A stretch of DNA of 56,699 bases, filler included, from Sluysia triapertura (lineage: Eukaryota): NCBI GenBank assembly GCA_046118255.1. It is 4 parts of 4 records of this genome, joined end to end, with 100 filler letters (N's around TTAATTAATTAA, not from the genome) between each part and the next. Parts side by side here need not be neighbours in the genome. Positions count along the whole stretch, not along the records: positions 15,668 to 32,857 come from JBJNIA010191162.1; 3 more parts are not named here. One strand, given 5' to 3'. A model generated the notes under the pieces. The model was given only the letters and a program-made list of their open reading frames with translations, ran no database searches and had not been told where the DNA came from. Below are positions 6,533 to 41,212 of this stretch, piece after piece; position 1 is the stretch's first letter, and each line of letters starts with the position of its first letter. Made by a program: the position numbers and the translations under genes.

Positions 6533-6562
6533 AAAATTGAAGATCATATTAATTTAATAGAT

Positions 6563-8240: not shown

Positions 8241-8241
<1 letters not shown>

Positions 8242-8303
<62 letters not shown>
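8242..8303. repeat. (AAT)n microsatellite
   Basis: Perfect trinucleotide run. Confidence 0.95.

Positions 8304-8304
<1 letters not shown>

Positions 8305-10091: not shown

Positions 10092-10093
<2 letters not shown>

Positions 10094-10140
<47 letters not shown>
10094..10140. repeat. (TAT)n microsatellite
   Basis: Perfect trinucleotide run. Confidence 0.9.
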
Positions 10141-10637
10141 TAATTATTATAACTATTATCATTTTAACTGTTTTATTATTATCGTTTTATTACTATCTGA
10201 GCCTAGCCGTCATCAGTGACAGCATTTTAAATAAACTTAAAATGCTGGTTATGTAGCTGTCTACTGATGACATTACACATTAATGAATTGGTACATTGAT
10301 TGTTTGTTACACACACGCTATCGTTTTATTATTTGATTCAATTGATTTGATTGGACGTCCAATCAATCCAATCATTGTATATTTTTATTTCACATTTATC
10401 TGGACATCCAATCACAAATCACATGCAATACACTTATCATTTCACAACGTGACTCTTAAAAATAACTTCACAATTATAAAATTTATTTACCAAACCAATA
10501 AATTAATAAAAATAGGGTAAAAATCGTTTTGAAAGTGTAAATTAACAAATCGGCATCACCAGAATCACAAATGTATACGAAATCTAAATATAATCATTGA
10601 CCTTTACATGGTAGAAATTAATTAATTAAATACTAAC

Positions 10638-11109
10638 TTTATTGCATAATTTGCAATTGATATCATAAAGATGAATACCGTGCAAATGAGTATTATCTGC
10701 TGTCAGTAAATTAACAACAGATGGCAAGTTATTCTTTGTGGTTGCAGTACTTGATTGACCAATTCCTAGATACTTGTGTGACTTTGAGACATTATTCGAA
10801 TGATTCATTACGTTCGAAGATTCATCATCGATTAAAAATGCTGCGCGATACTTTCCATCTGAATTTGAGACGCACATACCAGTTGCTAAATGTTGCGGCG
10901 ATATACGGCAGCGTAGAAAGTCGTGACTTAATTCAGAATCGGTCTTAAGTAAGTGACACAGATCTTTGGCTCGTTGTAAATAATTTGAAGACAAAACACC
11001 ATTATTGATATCATCTTGATAACTCTTGAATAAAGACTCTTCCAGTTGAGCACAAAGTTCCCATATTTGATGGAAATTGAAATATTTATTATTGGATAAA
11101 TTGGAACCT
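10638..11109 (-). CDS. DIDO1/PHF3-like gene exon, TFIIS central domain plus HxxHLxDxNCKxC motif
   Basis: WELCAQLEESLF...YLQRAKDLCHLLK...ISPQHL is TFIIS-M-like. It is followed by DNTHLHGIHLYDINCKLC, matching the DIDO1/PHF3 'HRAHLFDLNCKIC' motif. TTTCAG| acceptor; the AAA|GTTAGT donor (phase 0) joins the 4906 exon in frame. Confidence 0.85.
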
Positions 11110-11858
11110 CTGAAATGTCAATTTTGATTTTTAAATTCATTTTATCTGATGAATTTCATTTATTATAAAAGAATCTACGAACGAGAAAATTTAAATTCAT
11201 ATTCTTTGTAATGGTAAAAATTTTGAAGGACAAAGAAAAAATTAAAACAATACAGGCAAAAACGCAATAGCGATGTATGTCATTTATTATATGTTCAAAT
11301 AAAAGCTTTTAGCAGAATAATAATTATATATTAATCATTCACTACAATAATTCTGAAACAGAAAGAACTTTGTCTTTTTCTTAAATATTTCATGTAATTT
11401 GACACATTCTCTGGTAGCTAGAGTTAGATCGTCAAATTATTCTTCATGCTCCAGATACATATCAATAAGCATACTTAAATTTTATTGCATGTACCTTTGT
11501 GTTACAAGTGAAGATGTTGAAAGAAAAAAATTAATTAATTAGAATGTTAAGACTAAAATTGATTAAAAGCAAAATTCTTAGTTTTAATATTAATACTAAT
11601 TATAAAGATAACTAATACAGTAATAAAACAGCCAAGCGATACAATAGTACATATATAACTACAACACTTAGCAAATGTGCAAAAACTGTCATGCGAAATT
11701 TTTATTTAAAGTCAAAACTGTATATATAACAGTGATGTAATGGTTTGTTGATTATGCATGTAAAAAATTGATTTTTTGGCATAAAAGAAATTAAATTAAA
11801 ATACGGGTAATAAATTAATGAAAAAGGTATAAATTGTATAAATACGGTTAGTTGTCCG

Positions 11859-14430
11859 TGTGGTGGCCCAGCCTACACCTATGTAAATATCACATCAATC
11901 ATAACATTCTTCGACACAAACCTCATTACAAAAAATTACATTATAACAAGTCTCACCTATATCATTCACAACATTACAACACTCATCCTTAAAAAATCAC
12001 TCATGCCTAACAAAATCTTTTTGCTAACAAAACACAGCGCATTGTCATCTTGCCATCATTGTGAACATTTATGTAGTATAATTGTAGACTAATCCTAACA
12101 TTATCCATTTGTGATTATACAAATAAAGTTCAATAATTTTGTAATTTATCGAGTCGATATTAAATTTAAACTTAATCATCTATCGTTAATGGATTGTGAA
12201 AATAAATCAAAGACAATGAAATAAATCAACGAAATGAAGTTTATATGCAACCAAGAGAATATTTAAATCAGAGAATACGTTTCTAAATTACATATTTTTT
12301 ACATTTAATACAATTTTTTTAAAAGGTGAAAATGCTCGTTTACAAAAAAAGATATCAGAAATGAAAATAGAAAATGACGAAATAGTAAGAAATTTAAATT
12401 GTTGATTTAGGTAATTAGAAGATGAAAAGAAAGGCTTATGCATATTTAATGAACAATATTAAAAAAATTAAAGAAATTAAAGAAAGAAGTAAAATGAAAT
12501 AAAGATTCATTTTTAATTTGATAAATCACAAAATATTAGTTTAAAAAGTAACGCCTATACTTAAATTGAATGCTGTCAATAACATGGAAAGTGAAGATAA
12601 AATTGATAAGGAAGAGTTACTGGCGGGTTTACCAAAAAATTATGAAGAATTTATAAAATATTACAAATTGTTGAATTGGCCTATTTCAATAACACCAGAA
12701 TTAATTTCACATTTATATGAAGAAACGAGCGAATATCAGAAAAAAGAAGCTATTTATGAATGGGAAGAAGGACGACAAGAATACGAAAGGGGATTATTTG
12801 ATGTAGCCCCAGATGTTATAAACATACACCAAGATTTACAAGAAAGTAGGTTTTAGAATGTAGAAGAATTTCAAAATTTAGTTTATTCAGTCAGAAAATT
12901 ACCCAGTGCGGTCGATGCGTATTGCGGTTTGACCCAAAATCAACCTATGGAAACAAAGTAATTCGTCGAATTTCGTTTAAATTTTAGAGATACTGCATTA
13001 ACAGTACGAACAGCGTCTGGAGCAATAATGCACCGAGGTTCTTTAGGAGGTTCCAGTCGAGAAGTTGGTCTGAATGCGTGATGACTCGAGGCATTTCAAA
13101 ACAGTCACGGAAGGAAGAGATAATTAAATCGCTATAAGCAAAGCAATACAACTCTAATGTGGCGGAGACCCGTAGGTTAAATCTTGTGTTTTTAGAACCG
13201 AGCAGTCTCAACTTTAGTTCCAAGTTTGGCAAAAAAACATACGATAATTTTGTTTTTTTATTGTGTGGTTAATAAACGTGAGGTTAATCTCGCGTCGGGT
13301 ATCAAATAATGGCGCCCTTGTCCTAAAAAGAGATCAAGAGTACAAAGTTTTCGAAGTCGATCAATCGTATAAAAGCATTTGTTTAAACTTCGTAATTAAA
13401 CCGCTAAAAGGTATTCATATCGGACGAGGACGACCTTTATTTGATACTGACGACGAGCCACTGAGTTTACCAGTTTATAACGTTGTTTCTCATCTGAATT
13501 TTTATGCTTTTATTTTCGTATTTAAAATCACGCGTATGATGCATCATTATCATGATGATGATTTCACTTGTACGATATGCTTCCATAAGTTGTCTATCGA
13601 GACTAGTAATAATTTTGTATAATTTTAAATAATTTTAAAAGTGAAAAAATGTGTAAGGTTGACGCTTATATGGCAAATGAATACGTCCATAAGAGGATGA
13701 AACCTACTAAGATTTATTGTGACCATATTGTTTTTCATTCTCAATAAAATACTCGGATTATTTTTACGTTTTATAGTGTTGACGTAAATTTTGATTATGT
13801 AGTTATCATTTCAGATAATTTAAAACTAAAAAGGCGAGTAAAGTTAATACGAACCGATTAAATGAACGTATTCATGGAGGTCAATATAATGTCTTGAACA
13901 ATTTTGAAATTCGCAGTAGTGACATCACTATTTACATTTTGTATAAAGTTTTTATTACTTCTACGTCTTATTGTACAAATCATATTTTTCGAAGTTTTGA
14001 GATAAGTACATACGATGACTTCATACTCGATAAATCCGCTGCCTGTAATGAACGTAAGTTTTATATGATTACGGTTGTGCACTTTTTGAATGTGTCGCCA
14101 ATTTTTATAAGGTTTGTCCGATTTATCTATAATAAAAAATTCTCGGGTTGTTGTTACTTCAGAGTTTGTTTCCATAAAAGAATTTTTGAGTGCCTTAAGC
14201 ACCAGATTTATAATAACCTTTATTTTTATGTAAATGAAACCTTTTACAACGACTCAAACAAGAACAGAAATAATGATACTTTTAATTTCATAAATAATAA
14301 AACTAAATTTACAATACCAAACTATTAAGTTAACTATTAATATTATATCAAAATATTAGCACGATTTTAAAGGCAAATATTAAATTACCGAAATGCTTTA
14401 GTGATTTAATTATACTTTACTTATCTTAAA
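11859..14430 (+). mobile_element. Decayed element: C/A-skewed LTR-like start followed by broken orphan ORFs
   Basis: TGTGGTGGCCCAGCC start and C/A-rich leader, then intronless plus-strand ORF fragments (12566-12856, 13263-13622, 13894-14328) separated by stops and frameshifts. Confidence 0.35.
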
Positions 14431-15567: not shown

Positions 15568-15667
15568 NNNNNNNNNNNNNNNNNNNNNNNNNNNNNNNNN
15601 NNNNNNNNNNNTTAATTAATTAANNNNNNNNNNNNNNNNNNNNNNNNNNNNNNNNNNNNNNNNNNNN
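15568..15667. other. 100-nt scaffold gap with TTAATTAATTAA linker
   Basis: N run with a six-frame stop spacer at 15612-15623. Confidence 0.95.
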
Positions 15668-15739: not shown

Positions 15740-17979
15740 TAGGAATGGAATTTAAATTTCTTGAAGGAACATCGCTTAATTTTTGAGATCTCAAGTGGTA
15801 CTGCATTATTTGGCCATTAGTCACAACAGAGTATGTCTACATAACTTGAGAAGTAATTGGACATGGAATGATTTTATAAATACTTTAAACTTTTCTAAAT
15901 GATAGGATATCAGAATTTGTCAATTTCAATTAAAATTCGGTCATTTAGCTGCATGACCAAGACATTATCTATATGTCGGATAAAGAGGAAAAAGAACCCT
16001 TTCATTCATAAAAGGGTTTATCAGCATCAAATGGTCCATGTTGCTGCCAGTAATAATTGAAAGTGTTTTCTTTTTAAAAATGAACTTACAAAATAAAATA
16101 TATTAGGGTTCGTCTATAGTTAACGATGTATACCTTCGTAGTAGACGCTTCTATAGGATTTAGAATAAGTTTTAATTTTCATGATGGACTAAATTCAAAG
16201 TTAGTGCAGTTTCTACTCTAGCTATAGATTTATATCGATTGAGTATTTCTTATTACTTTCTGCAGCATGTGGTCGAATCATATGGATTCTCTAGAATTTA
16301 ATGTGAAGGGATTTGTCAAAATAATATTGTAAAATTTAAAAGTTATGTATGCATTGTGTTTAAACGAATTCTTACTCTCTAGTTTAGTTATACATTAATA
16401 ATGTATACTTGGAAGATATCAAGTTTTATTTGGACGATCAAGATTCTAAAGGTTAAATTATTGTTAATGTAAACTTCTTTAATAATATATGTACTCTATA
16501 TTAATATATTAGCTTTATTTTTTCTCAAAGTACGATTTATTATTATTATAAACTTCTAACAAACTTATTCTACAATTGATATCTATATTCTATATGTTAA
16601 ACTTATCTTCTCTGGAAATATAAATTCGAATACTCGTTCCAGTTGTTTGAGATGGAAGTGCCTTCTGTTACTCTGGAGTTAATTTACTCAAATACTTTAA
16701 TTTTATCTAAAAGACTTTATCTTATTTATAAAAAAATTTATCCGATTTGCTTTTAAAAAAATTTTTTGGACTTTAAATCCTTTGATACAATTTGTATGAA
16801 CTTTTAATATGTTTTCCTTCTATCTTTCACTCAACTTTTTAAAATTTTTTTACTGACTGCTCTATTTTCAGTCCCTCAAAGAAAATAAATAAGACTATAC
16901 GATAGAATTTACTTTAAAATATAATAGTTTACAATTACTTTTATTGATAAACAAGCAGACAATTTAGTTTGTTAATTTTTCTATTCAGATTAAAATCACT
17001 GACTCTTTTTTTTCTTTTTAAAAAAAACCGGGATAAGATCAGATCCCCTTTATGATCAATCGTTGGTAACAAAGTAATTCTTCTGTGTTTTGATGAAACA
17101 CTTGATAACAAATTAATTCTTCGATTAACAGCGACGTAACATTAAAATTAAAAAAATCTGATTCTTTTCTTTATTTGTTATTATGTGTAGTTTGTCAAAT
17201 GACAGTAGTATTTAAACTGTCTTTCAAAATTTTGTTACTACACTTAATGATAATTAATTTATAAGTTTTATTTAAAGTAATTAATTCTTATCTGAATACG
17301 TGCAATATTATAGTTAATATACAATCAATAATAATATATACACAAATAATATATATACAATAGCAATTGATTTATCTGAATACATATAATTAATTTAATT
17401 TATTCTAGTTATACTTTAAATTATATTACGTACAAAATTTTTAATTTATTGATTATTAAAGAATTCTTAATAATTTTATTGATTATTAAAGAATTATTGT
17501 TATTATAATTATGTTATTGATTTGTTAAGAATTTAAATTACATTGCTTAATTATTTTATTGACATATAAACATTGCATACAGCCATTATAACATTATATT
17601 ACATACAACCATGCATACAACATTATAACATTATGTTATAATATAAAAACTTATTTCATTTAGTAATTTCTTAAATCTGAACCTCGTTAATCTACAAGTT
17701 GTTACAATTAACTTGTGTATGACTACTCCCTCAATCTGTTAACGGTTTTTTTTGTTAAGTTTGCTTATTTAGTTAAGTGTTTATTGAAAATTCATGTGTA
17801 TTAAATCAACTCCATATGTATTTCCTTTTTATCATTATTATATTAAACAGTCAAAACAACTAATATATATTAAAGATAATATTAAATATTATAGAGAGTG
17901 AAAGTTAGCTGAATAATCTGAGGCCTGTCTCGTAAATCCAAGGCATGATTAAATGCCACAAAAGCACCTTATCATGAAC

Positions 17980-18355
17980 GGAAAGAGGTGGCACATGGGT
18001 GAAAGATGTGCCACCTACCGCGATTGTCATGCTGGTAAAATTTAGGTAAAAAGATTGTGACCCAACAAGTGTTAATGAAGGTCAGGTTTTACTGTGCTTC
18101 TATTTTAACGAAGCATTTTTTATTCAATGAAGACTTGCGAAGAGATGAGAAACCATACGTCTGAATAAAAAGCAGTGTCACTTCAACTATGAGAGTAACT
18201 TTAACAAGCTCTCTAGCCATCGTGATGTACATCGCATCCAAATCATCGGGACATTTGCTAAGCCATGTAGGGAAATTCGAGGGTATTTATATTCAACTGG
18301 TTTTTAGAAAAAATGCAGGACATAAAAGTTTTTAAGTTGATCTTGGCTTGTAGTT
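17980..18355 (-). pseudogene. Decayed homolog of the orphan gypsy accessory ORF at 39190-40386
   Basis: Minus-strand fragments QAKI..KNFY, PAFF, PRISLHGLANVP..LDAMYITMARELVKV, FSSL..LNKKCFVKIEA, QSFLPKFYQHD and GGTSFTHVPP align in order with QARI..KNFY, PAFF, PLISLDGLSQIP..IDSLYLAVARGVVKV, FSSL..IHKKCNIVIEA, QSFLPNLYKED and NGTSFTHVPP. Confidence 0.85.
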
Positions 18356-18866
18356 GTTGAAAGAAGAAAAAATGTAGTTAGTTTTAAATGCTCTTATATA
18401 TTGATACTTGTAATTATTAACTCATAACTGGCCGCTAAAAATTCTTAATTGAGCCGCCGCTGAGCCGGGCCTTGTTTACATTTCAAACGTTTGAATACCT
18501 GCATTACACACCGCGATATGTGAATAAAAAATAACGTATTATTACGTCAACGGCTTCTGGATTTCGGACAAAATTGACGTACTACTATGTCAAAGGCCAA
18601 TAATGAGTTAATAGAATTTTAAAAACATCTTATTTTCTCTTAATAAAATGATTAAGTGGTTTTTTTAGTAATACACTTTTTGAAGGATGTTGAAAATATT
18701 TATGGTATTATTTTAATTTTGTTTTTAAAACTAGATTTTATTTTTCGTTTCCTTTCCATACTTATTATGAAAGATTATCTTTTAATTTTGCTTACTATTA
18801 ATTTTAATTTTAAATACTTTAAGCTGGCTTAAGGCCTAGCGAAACAAATTGATTTTAAGCGGTGAT

Positions 18867-20221
18867 TCAACCATTTAAACAAAAGCGAAGAACAATGCAT
18901 AAAATCATTTGAACAACAAATATCGATCTTACAAAATTCTGAAAGAAAAAACGTTTTGTCGTTTCATGAGAAACATTAATATGTGTGTTAACATTGATAA
19001 TATCAGAAATATCATGACCATTTGTACCTAAAAATCGACGAACACCAAAAGATAATGGTTTAAGTTCAACTTTATCACGTTTAATTCGAGCAATGTGCGA
19101 TAACATTATATTAAAACCTGCCTTAATAAATCTCAAAGTATAGTTTAAATCGTGATGTTCACTATAATTAAACTTTGATAGCAGCTTTATCATTTTACCT
19201 GCATATTCTATCCAATAATTTATAGCCTTTTTTAATTCGTAGAAATAAATATAGGCATAATGACTTAAAAATTTCATGATGCACGTAATCTAAATATTTA
19301 CTAAACTCTTTATAAAAAATATGCTTAATTAGAGTATAACATCATTTTATAATCAACGGTAGTTGTTGAATGAAATTGAATTGTGTTATAAATCTTAATT
19401 TATTTAAACATCTGATAGGAATTTCATATTAGCATAGTTGGACTAAAATTCATATTAACTGAAAATATTAGTTTATCGTAGGTTGACTTCAATTTTAAAT
19501 AATACCATGATAAATAACGAGTCCAGTTTTCTTGTTATTTGATAATATTTTTACATTATCTGCTGCCATATGTTTCGACCACTTTATTAAAATGTTGCAT
19601 AAAAAAGCCAAATACGCAATAAATTTAAATCAATCAATTAATATTATTTACAAGAATGTGTAACATTGAAATTTGTCCATTGTTGAACATTGGTAGAATG
19701 TTCCAAATCTTATTGCAAATTTTCTGCTTCTGCTTCTTTTAATATCAAAGCTTTTAAAGCTGCTGATTTGTCAACTGGTAATTGATGATAGCCTTCTATT
19801 GCTAGTTTAACACTATTAATTTATTTATCAATATTTGCAACATATTTTTTAATTTTTCAAAAAGAGATAATGGAAAAATTTCACCCTGATTTCAATTTCG
19901 CTTTTGTAAGCCATTAGATTTTCTTCATTAGTTCTGCATTTTTCATAATTAGACTTCATTCTTTTTGAAATCTTGCATTAGATTAATTTTCTTTGCAGAA
20001 TTTAGTAATTTTTTAATAGTATCATTAATATTTGAAAATTTTGAAGCACGAAATTTAATTTTTTTTGTAAATTTCTTGTCTGAGTTTAATTTTTTTACTA
20101 CAGATTGGTGATATTTATTATAAGAAGCTTCCAGAAACTTTATCACTTTCAAAAACATCATTAGTTTGACTTTGTGATGCAAATTAGTTGCGTAACGATC
20201 TATAATATCTATAAGATTCAA
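18867..20221 (-). pseudogene. Broken intronless orphan ORFs (coiled-coil-like fragments and a 136-aa ORF), probably TE cargo
   Basis: ORFs 19949-20221 and 18867-19277 with interrupted frames between them, preceded by a strongly T/G-skewed leader. No recognisable domain. Confidence 0.3.
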
Positions 20222-21208
20222 TAATAAATGTGAAAATTAAAAATAAAATTTAGAAACAAAAAAATTCCAAAAACCGAAATAATAAAACAAAGAAAGGATA
20301 AAAATGAGTAATAAAACAAGAATGAAAGTGAAAAAATAGAATAAAAAATAAAATACAAAATAGAATAAATATGACAATAATACAGTATGATATTATATTC
20401 GACGACAAAAATATAATAATACAAATATAGAGAATAAGATAAAAAATGAGAACAATATTAACAACAATGATACACCCCACAAACAAACATAAACACAAGT
20501 ACAAATATAATTCACTTCAATCTCATCTACAAACATTTCATCCATCTCATAACTTCATCACATTTTACTCAACTTACAAAATTCTGAATAACTGAATCAT
20601 TTAATATTTTTTAATAATATATATTAATAATAATTACATATTTTAATAATATATAAAATTATACTAATCTACGAATTATATTAATTACAAATGAATCATA
20701 CGTATTCTTGTTGATATTGCCTCCTTCGTCCACTTTGGCGGCACGCCTGAAAATCTAATTTATTATGTAGATATTTATATTTTAAAAATGTTGAAGCAGA
20801 ATTCTTTGTGAAACCTTTTAATGTTACAATTTTTGTGATAAGTTTGGTCAAAGAATGCATGTAAGTAAAAATGTATAATGATGCATTGTGAAGACAAAGA
20901 ATAAAGAATAAAGTTTTAAAGTTTTGTTTTAATATTTTACTTTTTTATGTATATTTTAAAATGTTAAAAATTTTGAAAACAATGGAAAAATCGTGCCAGT
21001 AAATGAAATTAATTTAGAGGATTCCGACTCAAGATATGTGCAGATTTCAGAACAAGGTAGTAAATTTTACCGGAAGATGTCTAAATTAACTGATTTTTTT
21101 CGAAAAGAGCTCTATTTTTCAGGCGTTCAGTTTCCATCAGTGTTACCTATTTTGTTGTATGATCTCTACAATTTTTATTTGCGTGAATTTGTTACTAAAT
21201 ATTTTGAA

Positions 21209-21800
21209 ATGAAATTCACGAAACTGGAAATTAGTAAAGAAATTAAATATGCATTACGAGAAATGGATATGAAAAAAATGAAACATGTAATGTGAAACAT
21301 AAAAGGAAAAATGTATTCCGGAATTGTTAAATGGTTTTGATTTAATGTGAGCTGCTAAAACCGGCAGTGGCAAAACATTGGCATTTTTGGTACCCATTGT
21401 AGAAAAGGTTTTAAGTGTGCCTCAAACTTCAAATTACGGTACCATAGTTCTTATTATTTCACCTACAAGAGAATTATCTGAACAAATTTATGGTGTCTTA
21501 GAAAAGTTGATATCAAAAACAGATATAAAAATTGACATAATTATAAATGGAAAGAACATGAAAAACCAAGGTAAATAATTAAAAGAAGGTATTTCGATTT
21601 TGGTCTCGACGTCCGGTCGACCTCTCATTTTTTATACGGTAAATGTGTAATATTAGTGATTGATGAAGCTGATGAACTTATGAGTCAAGGATTTTTAGAA
21701 GACGTCATTTATTTGTAGGAAATTACCAAAAAAATAGTCAAACTGCTTTGTTTTCGGCAACATTAAATATGAATAAAAAGAAAATGAAGAAATACCTTAG
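21209..21800 (+). pseudogene. Intronless disrupted DEAD-box RNA helicase (DDX18/HAS1-like) N-terminal domain
   Basis: Q-motif region F..L.IS, then AAKTGSGKTLAFLVP (I), IISPTRELSEQIY (Ia), STSGR (degenerate Ib), LVIDEAD (II) and FSAT (III). It has in-frame stops and frameshifts, no introns, and is truncated before domain 2. Confidence 0.85.
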
Positions 21801-22429
21801 AGAAGAAACCAAACATCTTGGGGAAATTTTTGTGTTAGGTTGTGTTGAAGTTTTGTTTAAGATTTTGTTTATGAGAAACTTGTTAGATTGTGTTGGGGTT
21901 TATCTATGATTATGCTTATAATAAGTATGTTTTGGCTTTGAGCTGACCACAAGCTGGGTGTAGTTGTTTAACTTATAGAAGTTGTCGTCTGTGGCGATTT
22001 TGTGAGGCACGATGATAAATTAGGTTCAGATCTCTTCAAACCGTTTCTCATTTTCAGTTAGAATTGGTTGAATGATATTTTCTTCTAATATATTTCTAGT
22101 AAATCTATAGGAAGGCGATGCTACACATATATTTAACGGTAAACGAATCTGATCACTGCAATTTCTTTTAATAGTAAATACTATACTCATTAATTGTATT
22201 CCTGTAATAGTGCAGAAGGAAAATAAAACAGCGTGTACATCTTTTAAGATTGAGTAATACTTTTTGGTAGTGTAGAGAAATTGAACAAATGGTGAAGCGT
22301 ATTTTTGATAAAATTGTAGTAAGGTTATAACTTAAATTAAGTGTTTGAAAATAAATTAAAATATTTAAGCTAAAAAAAATATTTTAAGCTAGGAAAAGAA
22401 AAACGGTCTTTATCGCCATTACTACATGA

Positions 22430-25400
22430 CCCAAATTGGTAGAGGAAAATCATCACATATGGTTCGTTGCCTATACTTTGATGAAAAAATGAGCTCGGTT
22501 CTTAATGAATAAGTAAAAGTTACGAAATAAGTAATTTCAGAAAATGATATTTAATTTTAAAGTTAATTTATAATAAATTTTAATTGTTGTGAAATTATTA
22601 GTACCTTTATTCGATGATAACTTATAAGTGACAATACTCAGGTTTATAATCGTGTGCTCTACTGTTTGGCCAAAATTCATGTTTATCATATGGTTCAATC
22701 TTACACAATATTCATGTTTGAACAAATACAAGTTTATTATTTATGAAGTTTGAGTTTGGGAATGTAAACCCGTAATGAATACCATCTTATAAGTCACATG
22801 AAACATTGGAAAGTGTTCATCGAAAAAAAACTCGAATATTTTTATAACATTCTAACACGTATCTCGGTATTTGAGTTATGAAAATCAAAATATTCAGACT
22901 TAAACATTTGTTCATTGCTGTAAGTGATGGCTACTAATGCTATAAGTATCATAGGCATTAAATGTATCTTTTTGGCATTCTGAGATTTCTACCGAAATTG
23001 ATTAAATAAAACGCTGTGAAAAATAGTATTATAAATAACTTATAAGTGGCCTTTATACTATCGAAAATCAATGGATTAGCTTTATGAATGTTTCTTACCA
23101 ATTTAGTTGTAAATGTTTTGTTGGAAATTGCTGCGTGGATATTTTATTGTTATATTGTTTTATTTCTACAAAATTTTTAATACTACGTGTGTTTTGTGCA
23201 TTATCCATCGTTATTCATATTAGAATTCGTCTATATGCATTATGTATGTTGTTAATATTAAGGATTTAGATAAATTCAATCAATTTCGAAGGCGTGTGGT
23301 AAAATTAATTTTTTAGCAATAAATTTCATTCTCCAGTATCGATTATAAGTATTACTGATCATATTTTTGTTATTTTCCGGTCTTAATAGCTGTGTTCCTG
23401 TTTTAAAATTCTTTCTAAGTATAGTTAAATACACAAATAAAAATAATAATAATGATTAATTTCATCCAAAAAGGAAGTTTTTCTTAAGCTTATTTTCATT
23501 ATTAGTACCTAGTTGAAAACTATGATGCTCGGAAACTATTCCTAATGTATCTGACTCTACTTCGTATGATGCTATTGACCATGTGGAAGAATCCGACGAT
23601 ATATCTGGAAAATAATGAAACGTAGTTGATACTAATGATTTTGGAAGATTTGTTGTAGATTGTAGTAAGTGTGGAATCATTGGTGATACGCGCAAGTTTG
23701 GAATTTGGATTTGCAGTACCATACGCGACCTTGTGAAAATTTTACAAATCCGCATTTATTTGTATTACTATAATTATATCCTTTTATATTATTTTACTTA
23801 TATCTTACATTTGTGTGTCTACCAAATGATCCTTCCAGTGGAAGTAAAGTTGAGACTAAATCTGGATTTGTAATTGCTACTGCTAACATTGTGCGTAGTA
23901 TCGCTTTATTTAATTTCAGACTCTTTGTAACTATTCCTTTCTTAATCTGTAATATTACTGGTCCGAAAGATAAATGCCTTGGTAATTTGTTTCTGCAATC
24001 TCTTTACCGCATCGAATTATTAACCTACTGATATAAATATTAACCTATCTTTATTGGTCATTAAAATTACATAGTTTCTATATCATTTACTCTTTCTTAG
24101 TAATGACTCTTTGTTTTCTTTGTTTATTTGTCTTCTATTTATTTATATTAAGAATTCGTAATTATCCTGATGCACGAATCCAACTTCGCTTAAACTTTAT
24201 TTGTTTTAGAAATACTAATGGATACTGAAATACTAACTCTGGTATCACAACTAGTTTGATCGGTTCAACAAAATTATCATGGCATTATAGTACTTTTTTC
24301 TACGTCAAAACTTTTGATTTCAAACTTAAGTCTCGAGCTACGATAATTGCGCTACATTACTTCTATGTTTGTTTGAGTTTTGAAATTACTACTGTTACTA
24401 CCATTATAATTATTGTAATTGTTCGGTCTTCCTATACTTTTGTTTCTTCCTACAAAATTATCGTTGTGTTGATTATTTGATAATCTAGGCGGTAATAGTG
24501 CTTGTATTTCCGAGAACCAATATTATTTTGATAACTTCTTTCGTTATATACTTTTCTTCGGCTGTAATTTTTTTGTATTTCTTCTGTAATTGTTTCCACA
24601 AAAATTAATGATTCTTTTGCAATTATAATCTGAAGCATTTCAATACTTGGGAGATTCACTTTTTAAATTATATCTTGGGTTTTTATCTCTTTTAAAACTA
24701 GTATTACTCACACAACTTATGTTATCTTTTTCTTCGGCTTGAGATTTCTCGATGTCCCTTAATTTCTTAATTACTTCCTAAAGTGTGGAGGGCGATAATT
24801 TTTTAATTTTATAAATATTAAACCTTAAAAAACAATTTTTACTTTACAAAAACAATTAAACAACTTGAATTTAAATTTAAACAAGAAGGGCTTAAGGCCC
24901 GAAATGATTACTAATAAACAGTAAATTAAAACGCTTAAACAATTCACAAGGTTTATTAATTTACAAACATTATTAAAAGGATATATAGAATATAAATTTT
25001 TAAAACAAGATAAAACAAAAAGTAAATGAATTAGGATGAATTTTATGTGATGAGTTCCCTACACTTCCTTAATTACTTTCGTAACCATCTTTTAAATTTA
25101 TATATTAAAGTTGTATTTTTTATCTTCAGGGATTTTTGTCCTTGCCACTAAACAAATTCGTAAACCGTTCCATTCGGCTTCTGCTTCTTAATATTTAACA
25201 TCTTAATTTATTTTCCAAGGTCATCTAAAGCAATTTCTTCAGCAAAAAAATGTTCCAATTTTGATTTTTTGTATTATCAGCTTCTTTATATGTTGGAATC
25301 CGGTTAAATAATTTTGGATTAAGTTTTTCTATTTCGGTGCAGCTGTTAGTTTCGCTTTTCAAATAAGAAATCATAGAGCTCTTCTTCGGCTCCGTTAAAC

Positions 25401-25440
25401 TACAGTCGGTTTAAATATCTGGGCAAATTGTGCATTTCTT
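22430..25440 (-). mobile_element. Heavily deleted Ty3/gypsy relic related to the 33.9-41.3 kb element
   Basis: Order on the minus strand: gag-like fragments, degenerate protease (CDTRVSIS ~24250), env-like fragments (23800-24030), post-protease linker, then membrane polyprotein pieces clearly homologous to 36.4-39.05 kb (e.g. MISNTYNRYWRMKFIAKKLILPHAFEI; NEQMFKSEYFDFHN; FYLFIKNRAHFF). Confidence 0.8.
24784..25063. mobile_element. Possible solo LTR inserted in the gag relic
   Basis: TGTGGAGGG...CCCTACA termini (TG..CA with imperfect IR), internal AATAAA, non-coding. No clean TSD. Confidence 0.35.
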
Positions 25441-25662
25441 TTGCTTTATTTTTTTTATTTTCCTTATTCCCTATTAAAGCTTATAATGTATTACATTCTA
25501 TGAATAACCACATTTATTATTTAATACACTCTTAATATATATATATTGCTTTTTAATATTTATTACAAATTTTTATTAAGTCTAAAATAATGCTATTTAA
25601 ATTAATAATTTAGCATATGTTAGAATATACTATATGATATGATGATAATTATTTTATTACAG

Positions 25663-25850
25663 ATTATAGATTATTAATGCTTGTAGCTGAGTGTATAACT
25701 TGTCTTTTATTTCCTTTCGTATGGTCTCACGTTTACGCGCCTATTTTGCCGTTGGCTGCTCGCCAATTTCTTAATGCACCACTACCATTTATTATGGGTA
25801 TTCGAACTGGTTGTTATGAAGATGAAGAATCTGTACAGTTGGCGAGTGAG
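25663..25850 (+). CDS. DENND5: DENN domain protein (DENND5/Rab6IP1-like) exon
   Basis: YRLLMLVAECITCLLFPFVWSHVYAPILP...FLNAPLPFIMGI is core cDENN. TTACAG| acceptor and GAG|GTTAAT donor (phase 0). Confidence 0.85.
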
Positions 25851-27092
25851 GTTAATTTAATGTATTTAATATTTTTATATAATTTATAATAATTAAATTA
25901 GATATTTTTTAAGACTATTGATCAAATATTTTAAAATTATTTATATTGTTTCCCATATATAATTATTTTCATGCAATGAATGTTTATGGTTTTAAATAAA
26001 TATAAAACAAAAACTCTGAGAAATATAATCACAAAATTATATCGGTTAAACAAAACACTAAAAATATCAAGGAATATTGTAAATAAAATTGACAGTTTAA
26101 TAAAATTTTTGATACTCATTTTAAAATGGTAATAAATGATATCATTTAAGTTAACGAGGATAAAAAGAAATCGTATAATTGATTGAAGAAACTGAACATT
26201 TTTGTCAACTATGTTCATAATATCTTTAAAAATAATGAATTTATTTGAATAGGCAGTCAAATTTACTTTGGTAATATACTAATAATTTTATAAACTTTTA
26301 CAAAAATTGTAGAAATGTACAATAAAAAATTTATTTTATTAAACTGGAAATAATTATAATAATTACTGACCTTAAACTGATCATTCATTGGCCAGAAAAA
26401 CAATAAGAGTAAATAATCATAGCATGTTAAATGCTTACAATGCTTCATATTGATTAGGTGTAGAGTGTTAACTAAAAATTAAAATAACATTTTCGCAACT
26501 AATGTTATAACCGGAAACAAACTGATAAACAATTATAAATATATACTTGATAAATATTTACCCTTATAACTTGCCACGTCAAATGAAATGAAGATAAACT
26601 ATTATTAAAATCATTTATGTATGTATGTATAATACTAAAAAATTCAAAAGTAATAGTTACTTAGAGAGTAGAAGCTTATTATTATGCTTTTGTTATTGAA
26701 ATGGATGATAGATTTTGGTTAATATTTATAACTGAATCTAAAATACTTCCAAAAATATAACCATAAAACTAATATTTCATATAATTATTACTGTGTTGAT
26801 TGTAGTTATATTTGTTAAAAACATTATTTATCTGTTTATATCCATTTAATCTAATGTTTCGGAAACATCTTTAGAATAAATAAAGCTAGCTCAAAATTCC
26901 ACAATGAAAAATCAAAAGCAAGCTTACGGTTGAAAATGAACTTCACAATAAAGTTTAAAATGTGTTCCATGTTTAATATATTTTGTACACAGTTTAAAAT
27001 TATGTCTTATATGGTGATCATTTTTAATAAATTAATTAAGTTAATTAATTTGTTCAATAATAACAAATATTAATTCATATTTAACTATAAAG

Positions 27093-27246
27093 GCATCAGT
27101 ATGTTATGTCAATGTTGATAAAAAAATGGTTCGTACTCCTGAAGGCATCCCATCTTTTCCATTTGAATTAGAGCTTCGAAAATTAATAACGGACTTGTTA
27201 ATGGATAGTGTTAAAGACAATGTACGGTGTATCGAACCTAATCTTA
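27093..27246 (+). CDS. DENND5: DENND5-like exon
   Basis: ASVCYVNVDKKMVRTPEGIPSFP continues the DENN fold (cf. ANLCFVDID...PEDLPQFP). AAG|GCA acceptor (phase 0) and A|GTAAGT donor (phase 1). Confidence 0.85.
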
Positions 27247-27364
27247 GTAAGTATTATAGCATTCTTAATAAAATTATTATTATTATTATTGTTGTTGTTA
27301 TTATATACTGTGTTATATTATTTCGTGGTATTATATATTACAGATGATGATTATGATTATGGCG

Positions 27365-32400: not shown

Positions 32401-32785
32401 TTATTATTATTATTATATATTTGGGGTTTTTAATAAATTATGTACATACTTAATAAATGCTTAACAAATAATGCTTAATAAATAAAATTAAGTAAACTTT
32501 ATTACATAAAAGTTAATTTTAATTACAATGCTGGAAATAATTATAAAAATATTTCTTATTGTATAAATAAATTACAAAACTTTCTAACTGTAACAAAAAA
32601 AACTATGACATTTCAGTGCTAAAGTAAATTTGTCATAATTTGAAAAGATGAATAATTTCTTCAACTCATGTTCGTCATTTTTGTGTAATATTTGTAAAGT
32701 AATTTGTAAACAATTGAACTATCATGAAAGAAAAATGTGATTATAAATAAGTATATAGTTTGAAACATTTTAAAATAAAAAAATA

Positions 32786-32857
32786 CAGTGGAATCCGCTT
32801 AATCGGACCACATCTGGACACAATTTTTTTGGTCCGATTAAGCGGCTGGTCCCATTA
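32786..32857 (+). mobile_element. Tigger/pogo-like transposon terminus running into the gap
   Basis: TA|CAGTGGAATCCGCTTAATCGGACC with a perfect 16-bp internal inverted repeat (32795-32810 / 32830-32845), typical of pogo-family ends. Confidence 0.7.
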
Positions 32858-32957
32858 NNNNNNNNNNNNNNNNNNNNNNNNNNNNNNNNNNNNNNNNNNN
32901 NTTAATTAATTAANNNNNNNNNNNNNNNNNNNNNNNNNNNNNNNNNNNNNNNNNNNN
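32858..32957. other. 100-nt scaffold gap with TTAATTAATTAA linker
   Basis: N run with spacer at 32902-32913. Confidence 0.95.
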
Positions 32958-33858
32958 TTTCTGAGGTGGCAATCTTTAAAATGTCAATCTCTTCTCACAT
33001 CTTCTCTTGCCCAATCTAAACTCTCTAACAAATTACTTCTTAGCTCTGAACTTTCCGATAATGCCTTCTTCTTCTTACTTAAAGCTCGTACCAATACTTT
33101 GCCTCTTAACTTTTCTGCACGCAATCTTAAAACTAACTCCCTTACAAACTGCCGAAGATGCCACGTACTAAATCATTGCGCCTTCAACTCTTCTCTAATT
33201 ACTGATCGACATAATCATGCTCTAAACCTTATCTGCTCTTTCTTTAGGGACCGTGGGGTTGATATTGAATGTTACTCTGAGTACAGGCTTTTCTCTAATC
33301 GCTCAGATGTCCCCGATGAGGTAAAAAGACAGCGACCGGATCTCCTTTTTCAATTCAACTCTTGTTTCTATCTAATTGATGTAAAAACGCCTTTTGATAA
33401 AATCGAAACTTTCTCTTCTATTCATAAAGAAAATTCTCTTAAATATCTTCCCTTCTCACAATATCTCTCTAAAATCACTCGCTCTAAAGTTCTGATCTAT
33501 ACTTTAATCTTTCCTTCTCTAGGCTCTATCTATCCAGAAAACTTCAATACTCTCAGAACCTTCAACTTCAACAAATCAGATATCAACAAAATTTTGGTGG
33601 AAATCTCATTCAACATGGTGAAAATGTCTCACAGAATCTTCATCAACTATATTCTGTCCAGATATCCGAAAATCAAACATCTAACAGCTGCTGCAACTGT
33701 TAAATAAAGAAAATAAAGAAAATTAATGACAATTTATCAATCTCAAAGACAATTTGTTCATCTTTTTCGTGATTCATCTTTTCCATTTTCTTCTCATATG
33801 TAAATCATCATAATATACAGCCCTCGGGCATCGATTTAGCGTTTTGTATATAATAAAA
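32958..33858 (+). mobile_element. 3' end of an RLE-endonuclease non-LTR retrotransposon (NeSL/Utopia/R4-like)
   Basis: KARTNTLP, CRRC-HVLNHC (zinc knuckle with spacer deleted), RHN, RPDL...LIDVK..F...KY (PD-(D/E)xK endonuclease). Stop at 33707, short 3' UTR ending in AATAAAAA. Confidence 0.9.
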
Positions 33859-33919
33859 ATTTGGTAGTTCGAATTATAAATTATACGAATGATAATAAAT
33901 GGTTATTTACAGGAACTAA

Positions 33920-35990
33920 ATGGGAAGAATTGTTAATTATAAAATACCAACACATATTAATGTAATAAGCGATACGAAAAATAATAAAATAAAATTACGA
34001 CGGGATATACAAGAAGAGGATTATGGAGAAATTCATATCAATAACAAAAATTTAACCAAAAGGCAGAAGGAACAACTACATGAAGTTATACATCGATTTC
34101 CAAGAGCAATTTCAAAAAATAAATACGATATTGGAGATTCAGTAATTATAAAACATGTGATACCATTAACAGAGGATAAGGTAATTCGAAGAAAACCGTA
34201 TAGAATTCCTATTTGCAATCAAAAAGAAATGCAAGATCAAATTGACACTATGAAGAAAGCTGGAGTAATAAGACCGAGTTTCTCTCCTTTTTCATCACCA
34301 GTATTATTAGTGAAAAAGAAAGACGGTACAATGCGATTCTGTATAGACTTTAGAGAATTAAATAAGATAACAAGAAAAGATGTATTTCCCCTACCACGAA
34401 TAGACGAGATGTTAGACAAATTAGGGAATGCCACGACTTTAGATTTACAAAGCGGATATTGGCAGATAGAAATAGCGGAAAAAGACAAGCAAAAAACGGC
34501 GTTCACATGCGGAAATGAATTATACGAGTGCGAAAAGATGCCATTTGGTTTAACAGGTGCACCAGCAACGTTCCAACGTTGTATGAATTTTGTACTATCA
34601 GAATGTAAAAATGTCATGGTTATATAGATGACATTATAATATTTTCAAAGGACTTTAAAATTCATCTGGAAGATATAGATAATATATTAAAAAGATTGGA
34701 AGTTGCCAGACTTAAAATAAAGCCTACAAAATGTGTATGGGCAGAAGAAAAAGTTGAGTTCTTAGGACACATAGTATCTAAATATGGTATTAAACCAAAT
34801 CCAAGAAATATTGAAGAGGTAATTAAGTTTCCTCAACCGGATAACGTTAAAAAGGTTCAGAGTTTTCTAGGTTTGGCTAATTATTATAGAAGATTTGTTA
34901 AAAATTTTGCGAAAATTGCACAACTTCTTAGAAAACTTACAAAAAAGGATGTAGAATTTAAATGGATCGAAGAACAGATGAAGGCATTTAACGAATTAAA
35001 AGAACATTTAACTACAGCACCAATATTAATATTTCCGGATGTTAATAAACCTTTTATACTAACTACGGATGCTAGTAATTACGCTATCAGTGCAATTTTA
35101 GGCCAAAAGGATAAAAATAATCGTGAAACAGTTATAGCATACGCCAGGAGAAGACTTAATAAAGCAGAAATGAATTATTCAACAGTTGAAAGAGAATACA
35201 TAGCAATTGTATATGCATGTAAATTGTTCAGACATTACTTGTTAGGACAAAAAGTTTATTTGTATACTGATCATAAACCTTTAACATATTTGTATAATCA
35301 CCGAGATGAAGTTAGCAGACTCAACCGATGGTTTAATAAATTATCAGAATTTAACTTGGAGATTGTCTACAAATCTGGTAGTTTAAATAACGGGGCCGAT
35401 TGTATGTCTAGATTGACGAATGTAGATGATGAAGGAAATATCAATTTAATACAAATTATGTCAGTATCGGGAAATTTACAGAACTATGAAGATATTATTA
35501 AACATCAAAGAGAAGATAAAGAAATTTCGGCTATTCTAGATGGGTTAGCTAAAAGAACTTTAAATGAGTTACATTCAAAAAGATTAGCTATTATTGATGG
35601 AATATTGAGATTTAAAAATAATAAAGACGAATGGAAAACTATTATCCCAGAATCATTAATTATAATATTTTAATACAATTAGGTCACTTATCAACGAGGA
35701 AAACATTATTGAGAATTAAAAATAAATATTACAGGGAAAATATGGAATCAGATATAAGAAAATGGTGATGAAAAGTAGGTGATGAAGTACTCAAAGATTA
35801 TACGATAACTAAACCTGGACATTCGCCAAAATTACAAAAACCTTTTAAAGGATCTTATTTGATAACAAAAGTTACCGATACAAATTTGTTTGTTAAGGAT
35901 CCTAATAAGATTAATTCTGAAACGTTTGTGGTACATGTCAACAGGTGTAAATTAGCACCGAAAGAGGAATATAATTTAAGAAATAGAAAG
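33920..35990 (+). pseudogene. Gypsy pol: RT, RNase H and integrase remnants
   Basis: RT: KPYRIP, SPFSSPVLLVKKKDG..RFCIDFRELN, LDLQSGYWQI, MPFGL..APATFQR, and YIDD at 34621-34632 after a 1-nt frameshift. RNase H: TDAS, E, TDHKPL, ADCMSR. The integrase HH region (~35680) is joined directly to the GPY/F module (KLQKPFKGSY), with the DDE core deleted. Confidence 0.95.
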
Positions 35991-36119
35991 GTACAAAAAT
36001 CAAAATTAAAAATTCAACCAAGACATAATGATCGAGATAAACCGCCGTCAATTCATACACTAAGGAGTAATCAAGTGGTATTCATGATGAATTCTCATAG
36101 AAATGACTTAACTCATATA

Positions 36120-36470
36120 ATGCAAAATGTACGATTTAACGGACGATGGGTTAGAGCAATCGTAGATACCGGCGCTACTATTACTGTGGTTCATAAAAAC
36201 TTTCTAATTACTTGGGAATCAATATTCTTAAACAGACCAAGTCTAATAACATGTAATGTTAATCAAACACCTATAAATATCAATGGAACTTTATCATGTT
36301 ATATAGAAATATTAGGACAATATGTACAAACTGTAGCAAATGTTTGGGATAATAGCCCATATGAACTAATACTGGGAATGGATGTTATTAATAAATTGGA
36401 AGATATGGTTATTCATAGCATGTATGGATTTATAAAAATACCACCAGGTTCAAACATGATCATACCATAA
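36120..36470 (+). CDS. Second retropepsin-like aspartyl protease, downstream of integrase
   Basis: VRAIVDTGATITVV active site and YELILGMDVI C-terminal motif, in frame with the integrase C-terminus (ORF 35859-36470). Confidence 0.85.
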   Translation: MQNVRFNGRWVRAIVDTGATITVVHKNFLITWESIFLNRPSLITCNVNQTPININGTLSCYIEILGQYVQTVANVWDNSPYELILGMDVINKLEDMVIHSMYGFIKIPPGSNMIIP

Positions 36471-38925
36471 CTAGTAGTTCCACAAGACGGTGATTAGTTA
36501 ACTTTATATCAAATGCCAATGTCAAATCCACCACTACAAGTTCCAGACTTACCCGACATTGTCGAATCTACACTCCACTTATCAGATGTGTCATGAGGTT
36601 CACCATCATCAATTACATCAGAAGAAAATTCGGATTCAGGAATCAGTTCAGATAATAACTAATATAAGAAAAAGAAATTGTCTTAGTAAAAATCGTTTTG
36701 GGAAAATAACTTGTTGGCTTTCTATCCTAATTATGATTTTTCTATCACTAATAACTAATGTCATGGCAACAGAAACAGCCGAAGAATATAAAAATATGAA
36801 TATATCTACAAATCATGGCAGGGAACAAAAAATAATGATTAGTGACATTTACAACCAATATTGGAAATTCGAATTCATTTCTAAGAAAATGATTCTTTAA
36901 CACAAATTTGAAATTTATTGTATCTCTTTGAAACCATTATTAGTGGGAAAGCCACATCATTTGGACGGTATCCCACATTGTTTACATTACGGTTATAGAC
37001 AAATGCTAATAACTTTCTCTTTTGACACTCCAAGAAATACACGAGACATCCGAAAATTTATTAAGCAAATAGATCAGTTGAGTAATGAAGACACAACGAA
37101 AATACAGACAACCCTATCTGATTATAGTGCAATTGGGAAATCAATAGTTAATTTAAACAATTCAACTGCAATCGGTAAAATGGAACACTCTTATAAATTC
37201 TTTATAATATTACTAATTTTTTACATTACTATACTTATTTTGGACGATACTCTATGTGTATCAGATAGGTAAGAAAATACAGGTCCCGCGAACAACAAAA
37301 ATCTAATACCTTTAATTTTGATTACGATAATTACAGTAGTTCAATGTCACGAACAATCTTTTAAGACGGAGTATTTTGAATTTTATAATGGAAACAATGA
37401 AGCAAAAGTTAAAATATTAAATGAAAATGTTCATGCCAAATTTGCATGTTTGAAACCTGCCAGACTTAACTTTCGCTCATAGGTTATATACGAAAATTAT
37501 ATTAATAGTGAATTGAGGTATCCCGTCACGGTTTGCTCAGATATTTTACGTGTTGAAGATAGACATTATAGTGAAATACCGTCACTCATCAAAATACTTG
37601 CACTTTGCATTTAAATGTACAAGAAAACATCTAACAATATTGGAGGTATTACGGAATGATCCAGCGTTAATGATGCTAATTGTGGTGGCAATGCTATTCA
37701 TAATTGTTCTAGCTATAGTGGTATTAACTATTATTATGTTTGTTTCGAATAGATGCCGATATCCATGTCTATCGCATAACAATAATAATGTCGACGACGA
37801 CGCGTATACAGTTCCACATAGAAACAATTACGCTCCTCCTCCAGGTATGCCAATACTCCCACCTCCAATTTACGAATACGCTACAAACAATCAAATACCG
37901 CTTATATACGGAGATTGGCAAATGACTCAAGTAAAATCTACAATCTTGATATGTATCTACCTATCTTGTATATCAAGTACAAATTATTTATCAGAAAACT
38001 CCACGCCTAAAATAATTTTAGTCTCTACTCAAAAAGACGTATACGCTAGAATATTAATTGACGAAATTAAGTTATTTTCGGCCCGAATAAAATGTTGTAT
38101 AATGGATTGGTGTGAAATTGAGACAAGAGCAAGTAAACAGGATTCCTACTGGTTCATATCGTGTATCGATCTTGCTGAATATCAACTAATTAGTGTAACA
38201 ATAACTATGGAACTAGAATATGACTCCCAGAGTGACTCCAGGACTATTTTAATGCGATATTACAAGATAAGAACTAAACCATTTGTTTTTCGACAATCTT
38301 CAATAGTAGTTGAGTTTCCAATGATCATCTATCGCGATCTCCGAAATGTTGTACGCATATATAATCCGCTATACAATAATACATTATTGATCGCCTACAA
38401 ATTGAGTAATGGTTTACGTTATGGAATAATATTGCCTAATGAAACCATTCGCTTATATCATATTCCGAATTATATACTCATGTTTGTCAAATTCTGGATA
38501 ATAAGAAAAACAGAAATACTTAATTCTAAAGGATTCTAGCCAACAATTAGATATCACGACGAGCAGGTACCAATTATAGATAAAAACGAAAATGATTCTG
38601 ATACAAAATCAGAAAAATGCTTCTAATCAATAACAATGGTACGAATATAGCTTATGGCAAGCATAAGAACTTTAGTCCAGCCACTATCAGTAGGAATAAG
38701 AACGTAAGTCTGAATGCTACTAGTATAGATAAGAAAGTAAATAAGGAAAACACTAATTTTTCAATTATGAGAGAATCTAACAATAATTTCATCATAACTG
38801 TAAACTGTATTTTAATAATAACTTCTTTGTTAACCTTAATAATTAATTTTGTTATCCCAAAATTCTATTTGTTTATTAGGCATAGGGCTCATTTCTTTAT
38901 AATGGTTTTAATACATATTGCATAA
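36471..38925 (+). pseudogene. Accessory membrane polyprotein (several signal-peptide/TM segments, PPxY tail), mildly disrupted
   Basis: Frames continue across single stops and frameshifts. Hydrophobic segments lie at ~36710, ~37195, ~37300, ~37665, ~37935 and ~38790, with LPPPIY after the TM. The homologous relic has a sense codon where this copy has the 36898 stop. Confidence 0.7.
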
Positions 38926-39189
38926 TTGACCATATATACTCCCATTCATGTTGGAACATATGTGATATTAAAATTGATTTTGTAATATAGTAAGGATCGT
39001 GCATATGACTGAATGTGATGGTTTACCATCCATCTCGGCTCATGCACGAACTTAAAATTTTATATATGTGTAGGATTTTTCTTTTTAATTTTCTAATACT
39101 AAGTTTTTCTACAATTAATTTTGTTAATGAAATATAAAATTAAATGATTTTAATAAGCTTACTTATTTATAATTTTTCTGTACAATTTT

Positions 39190-40620: not shown

Positions 40621-40632
40621 AAGGGGGAAGTA
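40621..40632 (+). promoter_or_regulatory. Polypurine tract
   Basis: AAGGGGGAAG just before TGTGAAA at 40634. Confidence 0.8.
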
Positions 40633-40633
40633 T

Positions 40634-41175: not shown

Positions 41176-41212
<37 letters not shown>

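Follow-up and report, generated by a model that had tools for sequence, protein, structure and literature searches.

A minus-strand relic at 22430-23760 of the DNA studied here, a window of 56,699 nucleotides (nt) from Sluysia triapertura (assembly GCA_046118255.1), raises the question of whether it is a second copy of genes carried by a Ty3/gypsy element on the plus strand of the same window (33900-40630) and, if so, whether those genes were kept by selection. The original prediction was that the relic conserves an accessory polyprotein in the same order as the plus copy, and that this represents independent evidence for the cargo as a stable, selected part of the family. We find that 22430-23760 is a decayed, internally deleted paralogue of the 3′ accessory region of a Ty3/gypsy family, and that both copies in the window are dead. 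The wider reading that we favour, with a probability of about 0.6, is that this family has a chuvirus-type envelope and that its selected 3′ genes are several small membrane open reading frames (ORFs) together with a likely dead exonuclease.

A translated comparison of the two copies, which the original prediction had called for, was carried out with tblastx (18000-27000 against 32500-42500) and with tblastn of the plus-strand frames. All five of the matches quoted in support of the prediction were recovered in their places, on the minus strand and collinear, by these methods or by DNA alignment, at scores above those of shuffled sequence, and the quoted count of 17 identical residues in 27 was correct. 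On the minus strand, 23368-23261 corresponds to 36829-36936 (58% over 36 amino acids), 23247-23164 to 36982-37065, the YKLFIIL block at 23049-23025 to 37187-37211 (DNA alignment), 22976-22845 to 37288-37419 (43% over 44 amino acids) and 22608-22474 to 38773-38907 in the last membrane module, with the FYLFIKNRAHFF block lying within it at 22536-22474. A sixth and weaker block, overlooked earlier, pairs 22815-22650 with 38367-38559 (DNA alignment). The two best tblastn scores were 47.8 and 45.4 bits, compared with maxima of 23.1 in 63 other tiles of the window and 32.0 in 100 shuffles, and 5 of 5 segments compared by DNA alignment scored above all 200 of their shuffles, among them segments with scores of 377, 106 and 91 against shuffle maxima of 231, 93 and 81. 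Permissive blastn E-values are unreliable in this DNA, which is about 25% G+C and in which an AT-rich stretch matches unrelated window DNA at 1e-17; because such values are inflated, the claim of homology rests on the shuffles.

Read along its own strand, the accessory part of the relic has first a Ser-rich ORF of 97 amino acids (23462-23755, from the ORF list), whose DNA aligns with 36462-36740 at a score of 123 against a shuffle maximum of 104. It continues with module 1 (22958-23465), which has a signal-like start, an ectodomain of about 130 amino acids, a hydrophobic helix and a short basic tail and is broken by stops and frameshifts, and then with the start of module 2 (22802-22958), a Met-initiated signal-like peptide and the first part of an ectodomain, the remainder being deleted. 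There follow a C-terminal piece of the ORF found at 37550-38626 in the plus copy (22650-22815; the DNA score of 91 given above, tblastn E 0.025) and a piece of the last membrane module that includes FYLFIKNRAHFF (22444-22631). The relic is a partial copy, as it has no counterpart of plus-copy positions 37468-38366 (about 900 nt) and 38560-38753 (about 190 nt). The range first assigned to it does, then, hold a paralogue of the accessory region, but one lacking these two pieces of cargo, and the relic reaches beyond that range to an envelope fragment upstream and an exonuclease-like last ORF, of neither of which had there been any sign.

Selection on the cargo was assessed on blocks picked by DNA alignment and not by amino-acid likeness, with only blocks of at least 20 nt counted. 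Within 22430-23760, mismatches fall at 91 of 265 first, 77 of 270 second and 127 of 263 third codon positions, so that the third position differs from the others (p = 5.6e-6) by an excess of 0.169 which none of 200 shuffles reached (maximum 0.150). The ratio of nonsynonymous to synonymous differences (pN/pS) was 0.52 over 217 codons (bootstrap 0.41-0.66), computed without 37213-37310 because the plus copy is frameshifted there, and the corresponding divergences were about 1.2 (dS) and 0.4 (dN). The two wrong frames gave ratios of 1.34 and 1.10, with 29 and 42 stop-bearing pairs compared with 11 in the right frame, and the weakest block by itself gave 0.75. Given a ratio of 0.52 in frame against 1.1-1.3 off frame, we conclude that the cargo was under purifying selection; taken together with a dS above 1, this means that the two lineages split long ago under protein constraint, with each copy decaying later.

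The plus copy is carried by one public sequencing run, which we refer to as X1, with no RNA run among the holders listed. On 32960-41500, X1 contributes 14,148 contig records with identities of 80-100%, the majority of them 80-95%, and the cargo differences listed recur in up to 58 contigs. The depth of X1 is not a copy number, its contigs are too short to join the cargo to pol, and the run may be the source material itself, in which case it lends no independent support for range. The description of the cargo as a stable, selected part of the family is supported by the codon-position bias, the pN/pS of 0.52 and the many divergent contigs that cover the plus-copy cargo. The claim of independence holds in so far as these are two long-diverged paralogues, but both sit in one genome and are independent in no wider sense.

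The family to which the plus copy belongs can be placed through its reverse transcriptase (RT). Among 120 listed of the 1,290 RT relatives found, P0007 and P0009 stand out as the only two that share a motif with the window RT, and a scan of metagenome contigs for that motif returned a single locus, L001, with none in viral contigs. Trees built from two unbroken RT pieces (122 and 106 sequences, short matches dropped) place the window RT in a clade with those of P0007, P0009 and L001 (support 0.988 and 1.0), and contigs of this clade are 16-20 kb long. In L001, positions 97-11208 hold one ORF of 3,703 amino acids that looks like an intact gag-env-pol, encoding in order gag, two CCHC knuckles, ubiquitin-like domains, ENV, two tandem proteases, RT, RNase H, integrase and a type I membrane protein. 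Its ENV is of chuvirus type (Pfam PF24664 at 1e-83), which is presumably the same as the gB-type ENV of the errantivirus study discussed below. Three more ORFs follow at 11375-13852, namely a likely coiled coil of 222 amino acids, an exonuclease ORF of 462 and an ORF of 88, parted by short AT-rich spacers and not by overlaps. In L001, P0007 and P0009 alike, pol ends in a module consisting of a signal, an ectodomain, a transmembrane (TM) segment and a tail; it is fused in frame and homologous among the three (scores of 143 and 161 against shuffle maxima of 64 and 62), with a two-repeat, Cys-patterned ectodomain common to all of them and belonging to no Pfam family.

The relic adds an envelope to this picture. 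A chuvirus-type (class III) envelope glycoprotein gene has left two collinear fragments at 23750-24023 on the minus strand; they match L001 ENV (tblastn E 1.6e-5), at scores of 97 (0 of 500 shuffles) and 47 (4 of 500), with no direct Pfam match. From env the relic passes straight to the Ser-rich ORF, with no detectable pol left. Scores for integrase, protease and gag in the relic were at chance level, those for gag being reached by 89-240 of 500 shuffles, and neither gag nor protease was confirmed in 24050-25600 by Pfam or shuffle tests. An assignment of 23818-23949 to integrase was rejected, the score being at chance against integrase and far above it against ENV. The gene order of the family is likely to be gag-env-pol. 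No pair of long terminal repeats (LTRs) was found in the window for the relic or for the plus copy, nor in L001.

The plus copy has lost its 5′ part (gag, env and the first protease). What remains opens with RT and RNase H (33920-35670; Pfam RVT_1 and RT_RNaseH), frameshifted near 34620, followed by an integrase (35682-36050; Pfam Integrase_H2C2) in which the start of the N-terminal zinc finger is joined to the C-terminus, the catalytic core having been deleted near 35767. This integrase matches residues 2927-2954 and then 3163-3280 of the L001 ORF, and 27 X1 records continue behind 35767 with different sequence. The Ty3/gypsy (Metaviridae) order of RT, RNase H and integrase is thus present, short of the integrase core. 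An aspartic protease with a DTG motif (36111-36467; Pfam gag-asp_proteas at 1.7e-7) follows in frame with the integrase and matches each of the two proteases of L001 at a score that 0 of 500 shuffles reached; it is the only protease of this copy, and the relatives have theirs upstream of RT. A search for the integrase C-terminus plus protease among longer proteins gave no match in 422 candidates. Next come the Ser-rich stretch and module 1 (36513-37306), with a hydrophobic start at 36697-36774, an ectodomain and a hydrophobic helix from 37186, damaged by a stop at 36898-36900 and a frameshift near 37215 and ending in a stop at 37304-37306; four X1 contigs have a 1-nt indel at 37217. Module 2 (37305-38626) has a signal-like peptide, an ectodomain, a strong TM segment at 37655-37756 and a Pro-rich tail with PPIY, and is damaged by stops at 37477-37479 and 38537-38539 and a frameshift near 37564. 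The last membrane module (38617-39010) has N-glycosylation sequons and a TM segment at 38782-38865. Beyond the last ORF, a polypurine tract at 40620-40630 precedes a TG at 40634 (feature at 40620-40640), where the 3′ LTR is likely to start, judging from sequence.

The last ORF (39190-40551, plus strand) is open for 398 amino acids and, after one stop, for 55 more codons, and encodes an N-terminal domain, a homologue of DEDDh exonucleases and a Ser/Thr/Pro tail. It matches the second of the three additional ORFs of L001, itself a Pfam RNase_T match, at a score of 92 (0 of 300 shuffles). Over the exonuclease part the alignment runs for 107 residues without a gap (0 of 500), while the N-terminus matches more weakly (18 of 500). 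A profile of the two sequences matches ISG20L2 (5e-8) and ISG20 (1e-4), the signal coming mainly from L001; by itself the last ORF gave no direct Pfam match, no match among 4,383 candidates in a homologue search and nothing in the ESM Atlas. The catalytic residues D, E, D, H and D are present in L001 and absent at the aligned ExoI, ExoII and ExoIII positions of the plus copy. A relic of this ORF lies on the minus strand at 17886-18315 (tblastn E 1.8e-10; DNA score 192 against a shuffle maximum of 113; pN/pS 0.47), on the same strand and in the same order as the accessory relic but separated from it by 4.1 kb, which hold a DEAD-box pseudogene and further decayed sequence, and the ExoI acids are absent there too. 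Since the acids are missing from both copies and the ratio is 0.47, the loss of the active site likely predates their split, and the product of the last ORF is likely a catalytically dead exonuclease.

Whether the membrane modules form one polyprotein, as first proposed, is a separate matter from their conserved order, which stands. The stop of the Ser-rich ORF in the relic lies in ATGA, the ATG of which (23465) opens a hydrophobic signal-like peptide, and module 1, in the frame of YKLFIIL, ends after its basic tail in TAATG (22960-22956), the ATG of which opens the next signal-like peptide. Both of the junctions kept in the relic (2 of 2) are therefore overlapping stops and starts placed before Met-initiated signal-like peptides. 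The plus copy has its frameshift within the same helix, followed by a similar tail and a stop at the homologous place, 37304-37306. Termination-reinitiation in caliciviruses and influenza B is marked by overlaps of the UAAUG and AUGA kinds, and SART1 is described as using reinitiation (PMC10275272). The description of the cargo as a polyprotein is thus doubtful, and the arrangement of these junctions suggests that it was probably made up of several small, separate and coupled ORFs.

Several observations weigh against the reading that we favour. With regard to its coupled ORFs, the overlaps were noticed post hoc in a frameshifted relic whose 1.33 kb contain TAATG 4 times, and at the 37304-37306 junction the plus copy lacks a start codon. 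Moreover, P0007, P0009 and L001 fuse their membrane module to pol, module 2 of the plus copy runs without a stop into a further domain of about 200 amino acids after the Met at 37922, as a polyprotein would, and some plus-copy stops are private to that copy. With regard to the family as reconstructed, neither window copy has env and pol together, the gag-env-pol order being seen only in L001, and it is unproven that 17886-18315 belongs to the same insertion as the relic at 22430-23760. As for the modules themselves, AlphaFold predictions were of low confidence (pLDDT 37 and 30), and comparison with the post-integrase module of the relatives gave scores reached by 9, 49, 74 and 2 of 100 shuffles for modules 1, 2, 3 and the TM-tail; all 100 were beaten by the last module alone, at 4 bits and likely through its TM segment.

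The alternative that survives best draws on the same points: the family and the selected cargo would be as described, but pol would run through the second protease and the membrane modules as one polyprotein, to be cut by signal peptidase and the extra protease, and the stops and overlaps would be products of decay. The in-frame modules of the three relatives and the uninterrupted join of module 2 to the next domain fit this, as do the position of the protease directly ahead of the cargo and the finding in X1 that the stops at 36468 and 36898 are not in most of the contigs covering them. Set against it are the stop/start overlaps at both relic junctions and the stop that the plus copy has at the homologous place even with a dS above 1, and we regard the polyprotein as unlikely, if still the most credible of the alternatives. 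Spliced RNAs, or a mixture of modes, would take up what little likelihood is left after separate ORFs and the polyprotein.

The origin of the membrane modules is not explained by L001, because their scores against the relatives' module are at or near chance; a likeness of the tail was marginal (36-62 of 1000 shuffles). None of the modules matches Pfam. Modules 1 and 4 were compared with Pfam and local sequences, and the database-wide search covered the 37550-38536 ORF, for which, or for its C-terminal half, there were no matches in the PDB, in metagenome contigs (271 pattern matches) or among 1.84 billion representatives. A likeness by eye between module 1 and the relatives' ectodomain was not supported by comparison, nor was an FN3 fold for module 1.

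If the cargo does consist of separate ORFs, a single accessory RNA would probably serve for all of them, the stop/start overlaps being the sites of termination-reinitiation. Each module would use a signal peptide of its own to enter the secretory pathway and would then be anchored in the membrane. The membrane-protein genes may have helped the element to spread between cells. The modules would then work alongside the class III fusogen in the release of particles and in cell entry, NEDD4-type ligases being recruited for budding by the PPxY tail and attachment being served by the ectodomains; PPIY fits the pattern of PPxY late domains, and herpesvirus gB requires partner glycoproteins. It is more doubtful, though conceivable, that the dead exonuclease fold would bind RNA ends and protect the RNA of the element against decay or silencing by the host. 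Maelstrom and EXD1 are given in PMC5408684 as inactive DEDD derivatives that retain RNA binding. A further extension, which we hold to be rather improbable, is that these contigs, 16-20 kb in length, represent a clade of large 'complex retroviruses' of invertebrates that have a Ty3/gypsy core, with a class III env before pol, a duplicated protease and a swappable 3′ array; in the window this array would hold translationally coupled orphan membrane proteins and an ISG20-type exonuclease kept under selection after the loss of its active site as an RNA-binding decoy for counter-defence.

Other origins and functions for the modules fare less well than the polyprotein. The 37550-38626 ORF might be a captured IL-17-receptor-like protein, with a TM segment and a SEFIR/TIR domain, acting as an immune-signalling decoy, since its ten best named ESM Atlas matches share the SEFIR family or clan (top score 0.80), a strong TM segment lies upstream of the putative SEFIR part, and planarian Burro elements provide a precedent in carrying MATH/TRAF, BIR and BCL2 domains (PMC6431247). 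However, ESM scores below 0.9 are leads only, recognition (2259) was below the tool's mark, there was no SEFIR match in Pfam and no match at all in the PDB or among the 1.84 billion representatives, and the low-confidence model is, as a weak indication, mostly beta strands and not the alpha/beta fold of TIR type, which leaves this capture improbable.

It is more improbable still that the small membrane ORFs are cell-cell fusogens of the sORF2 or FAST kind that back up or replace the envelope. FAST proteins are smaller than the modules in the window. In Drosophila, elements of the MDG1 group use a short TM protein in spreading (PMC11952523), and rotifer LTR elements have small TM ORF3s (PMC5408684), but the family already has a class III envelope and its modules carry signal-like peptides and ectodomains of at least 100 amino acids. 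Finally, a host gene duplicated beside transposon debris, or chance likeness, might be entertained given that AT-rich DNA yields spurious blastn matches here and that the modules had no homologue found in other elements, but it is largely refuted by the shuffle controls and frame-specific selection, the many divergent contigs over the cargo, the absence of introns from the cargo in contrast to the host genes of the window, and the envelope fragment upstream in the relic and the pol and polypurine tract flanking the plus copy.

Among known systems, the closest are the GAG-ENV-POL errantiviruses whose ENV is of HSV/gB type (HSV, herpes simplex virus), from nematodes, bryozoans and flatworms (PMC13524379, which cites the nematode study Sacco 2022). 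As far as the passages of that paper go, the window family is like them in its Ty3/gypsy pol, in a class III env before pol (seen in L001, with an env fragment in the relic) and in its animal host, and unlike them in having several membrane ORFs, an extra protease and an exonuclease homologue after the integrase. The same passages mention no 3′ accessory array; in the main text 'exonuclease' is absent, 'protease' occurs once and 'accessory' is absent, though it occurs twice in a longer file. A motif search of the supplements gave no match, which is uninformative as they hold no full POL sequences, and the window clade may itself be among these elements. Bdelloid rotifer Juno and Vesta elements, as described in PMC5408684, also have a 3′ exonuclease ORF or a small TM ORF as family-specific cargo, but their exonuclease is RNase D-like (DEDDy), keeps its catalytic residues and usually replaces env, whereas the homologue here is ISG20/RNase T-like, stands beside env and is without catalytic acids in the window copies. 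The planarian giant gypsy element Burro, as described in PMC6431247, resembles the family in an env in frame between gag and pol, in ubiquitin-like domains (seen here in L001) and in accessory ORFs; its env resembles gypsy F-type fusion proteins and its cargo comprises MATH, BIR, BCL2 and ankyrin, none of which was matched here. Lastly, sORF2 of the Drosophila MDG1 group is likewise a small accessory TM protein of LTR retrotransposons tied to cell-to-cell spread (PMC11952523), but MDG1 elements have no env and the protein is short, whereas the present family has an env along with several modules of larger size.

A literature search, with most subscription journals and Repbase outside its scope, found no paper on this combination. 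What we describe is an envelope-carrying Ty3/gypsy family of the known gag-env-pol errantivirus type; what is new in it is a selected 3′ array of orphan membrane proteins, together with an additional protease and a likely pseudo-exonuclease. Beyond the insects, Ty3/gypsy elements bearing an envelope have been surveyed only recently, as three-gene gag/env/pol elements, and this family suggests that some of them carry selected accessory genes, as complex vertebrate retroviruses do. The rotifer paper left the role of exonuclease cargo open and noted dead DEDD folds in piRNA pathways (PMC5408684); an exonuclease with intact motifs in L001 and a motif-less homologue in the window make the role of such cargo testable. 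A second decayed copy is ordinary in itself, and the value of this one lies in the selection test, the envelope fragment and the junctions.

A number of further features surround the two copies. The two parts of the relic have between them an intronless, broken N-terminal domain of a DEAD-box helicase (Pfam DEAD, 5.8e-25), which is on the other (plus) strand at 20960-21830 and may be a retrocopy or captured cargo. On the relic strand of the same 4-kb gap there are open frames at 22026-22331, 19949-20236 and 18867-19289 (101, 95 and 140 codons), the first of which includes a hydrophobic stretch. They have no match in the plus copy or in L001, none exceeds a Pfam cut-off, and they are possibly lineage-specific cargo. 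Abutting the plus copy, and apparently replacing its 5′ part, is the 3′ end of a non-LTR element, likely of R2/R4 type (33042-33860, plus strand), with a CCHC followed by a PD-(D/E)xK-like motif and no Pfam match. Just upstream of it is one of three 100-base gaps (15568-15667, 32858-32957 and 45195-45294), each with a 12-base spacer (TTAATTAATTAA in the two that were read) that has a run of 44 Ns on either side, across which the order is not sequenced. Short inverted-repeat sequence at 32785-32857, interrupted by the gap, resembles the end of a Tc1/pogo-type miniature element. Host exons encode a PHF3/DIDO-type protein at 3132-11117 on the minus strand (TFIIS_M and SPOC, with a match to the solved PHF3 SPOC structure at 6e-14) and a DENN-domain protein at 25638-27260 on the plus strand, and it is because of the spliced PHF3-type gene, together with the DENN-domain gene, that the host is read as an AT-rich animal.

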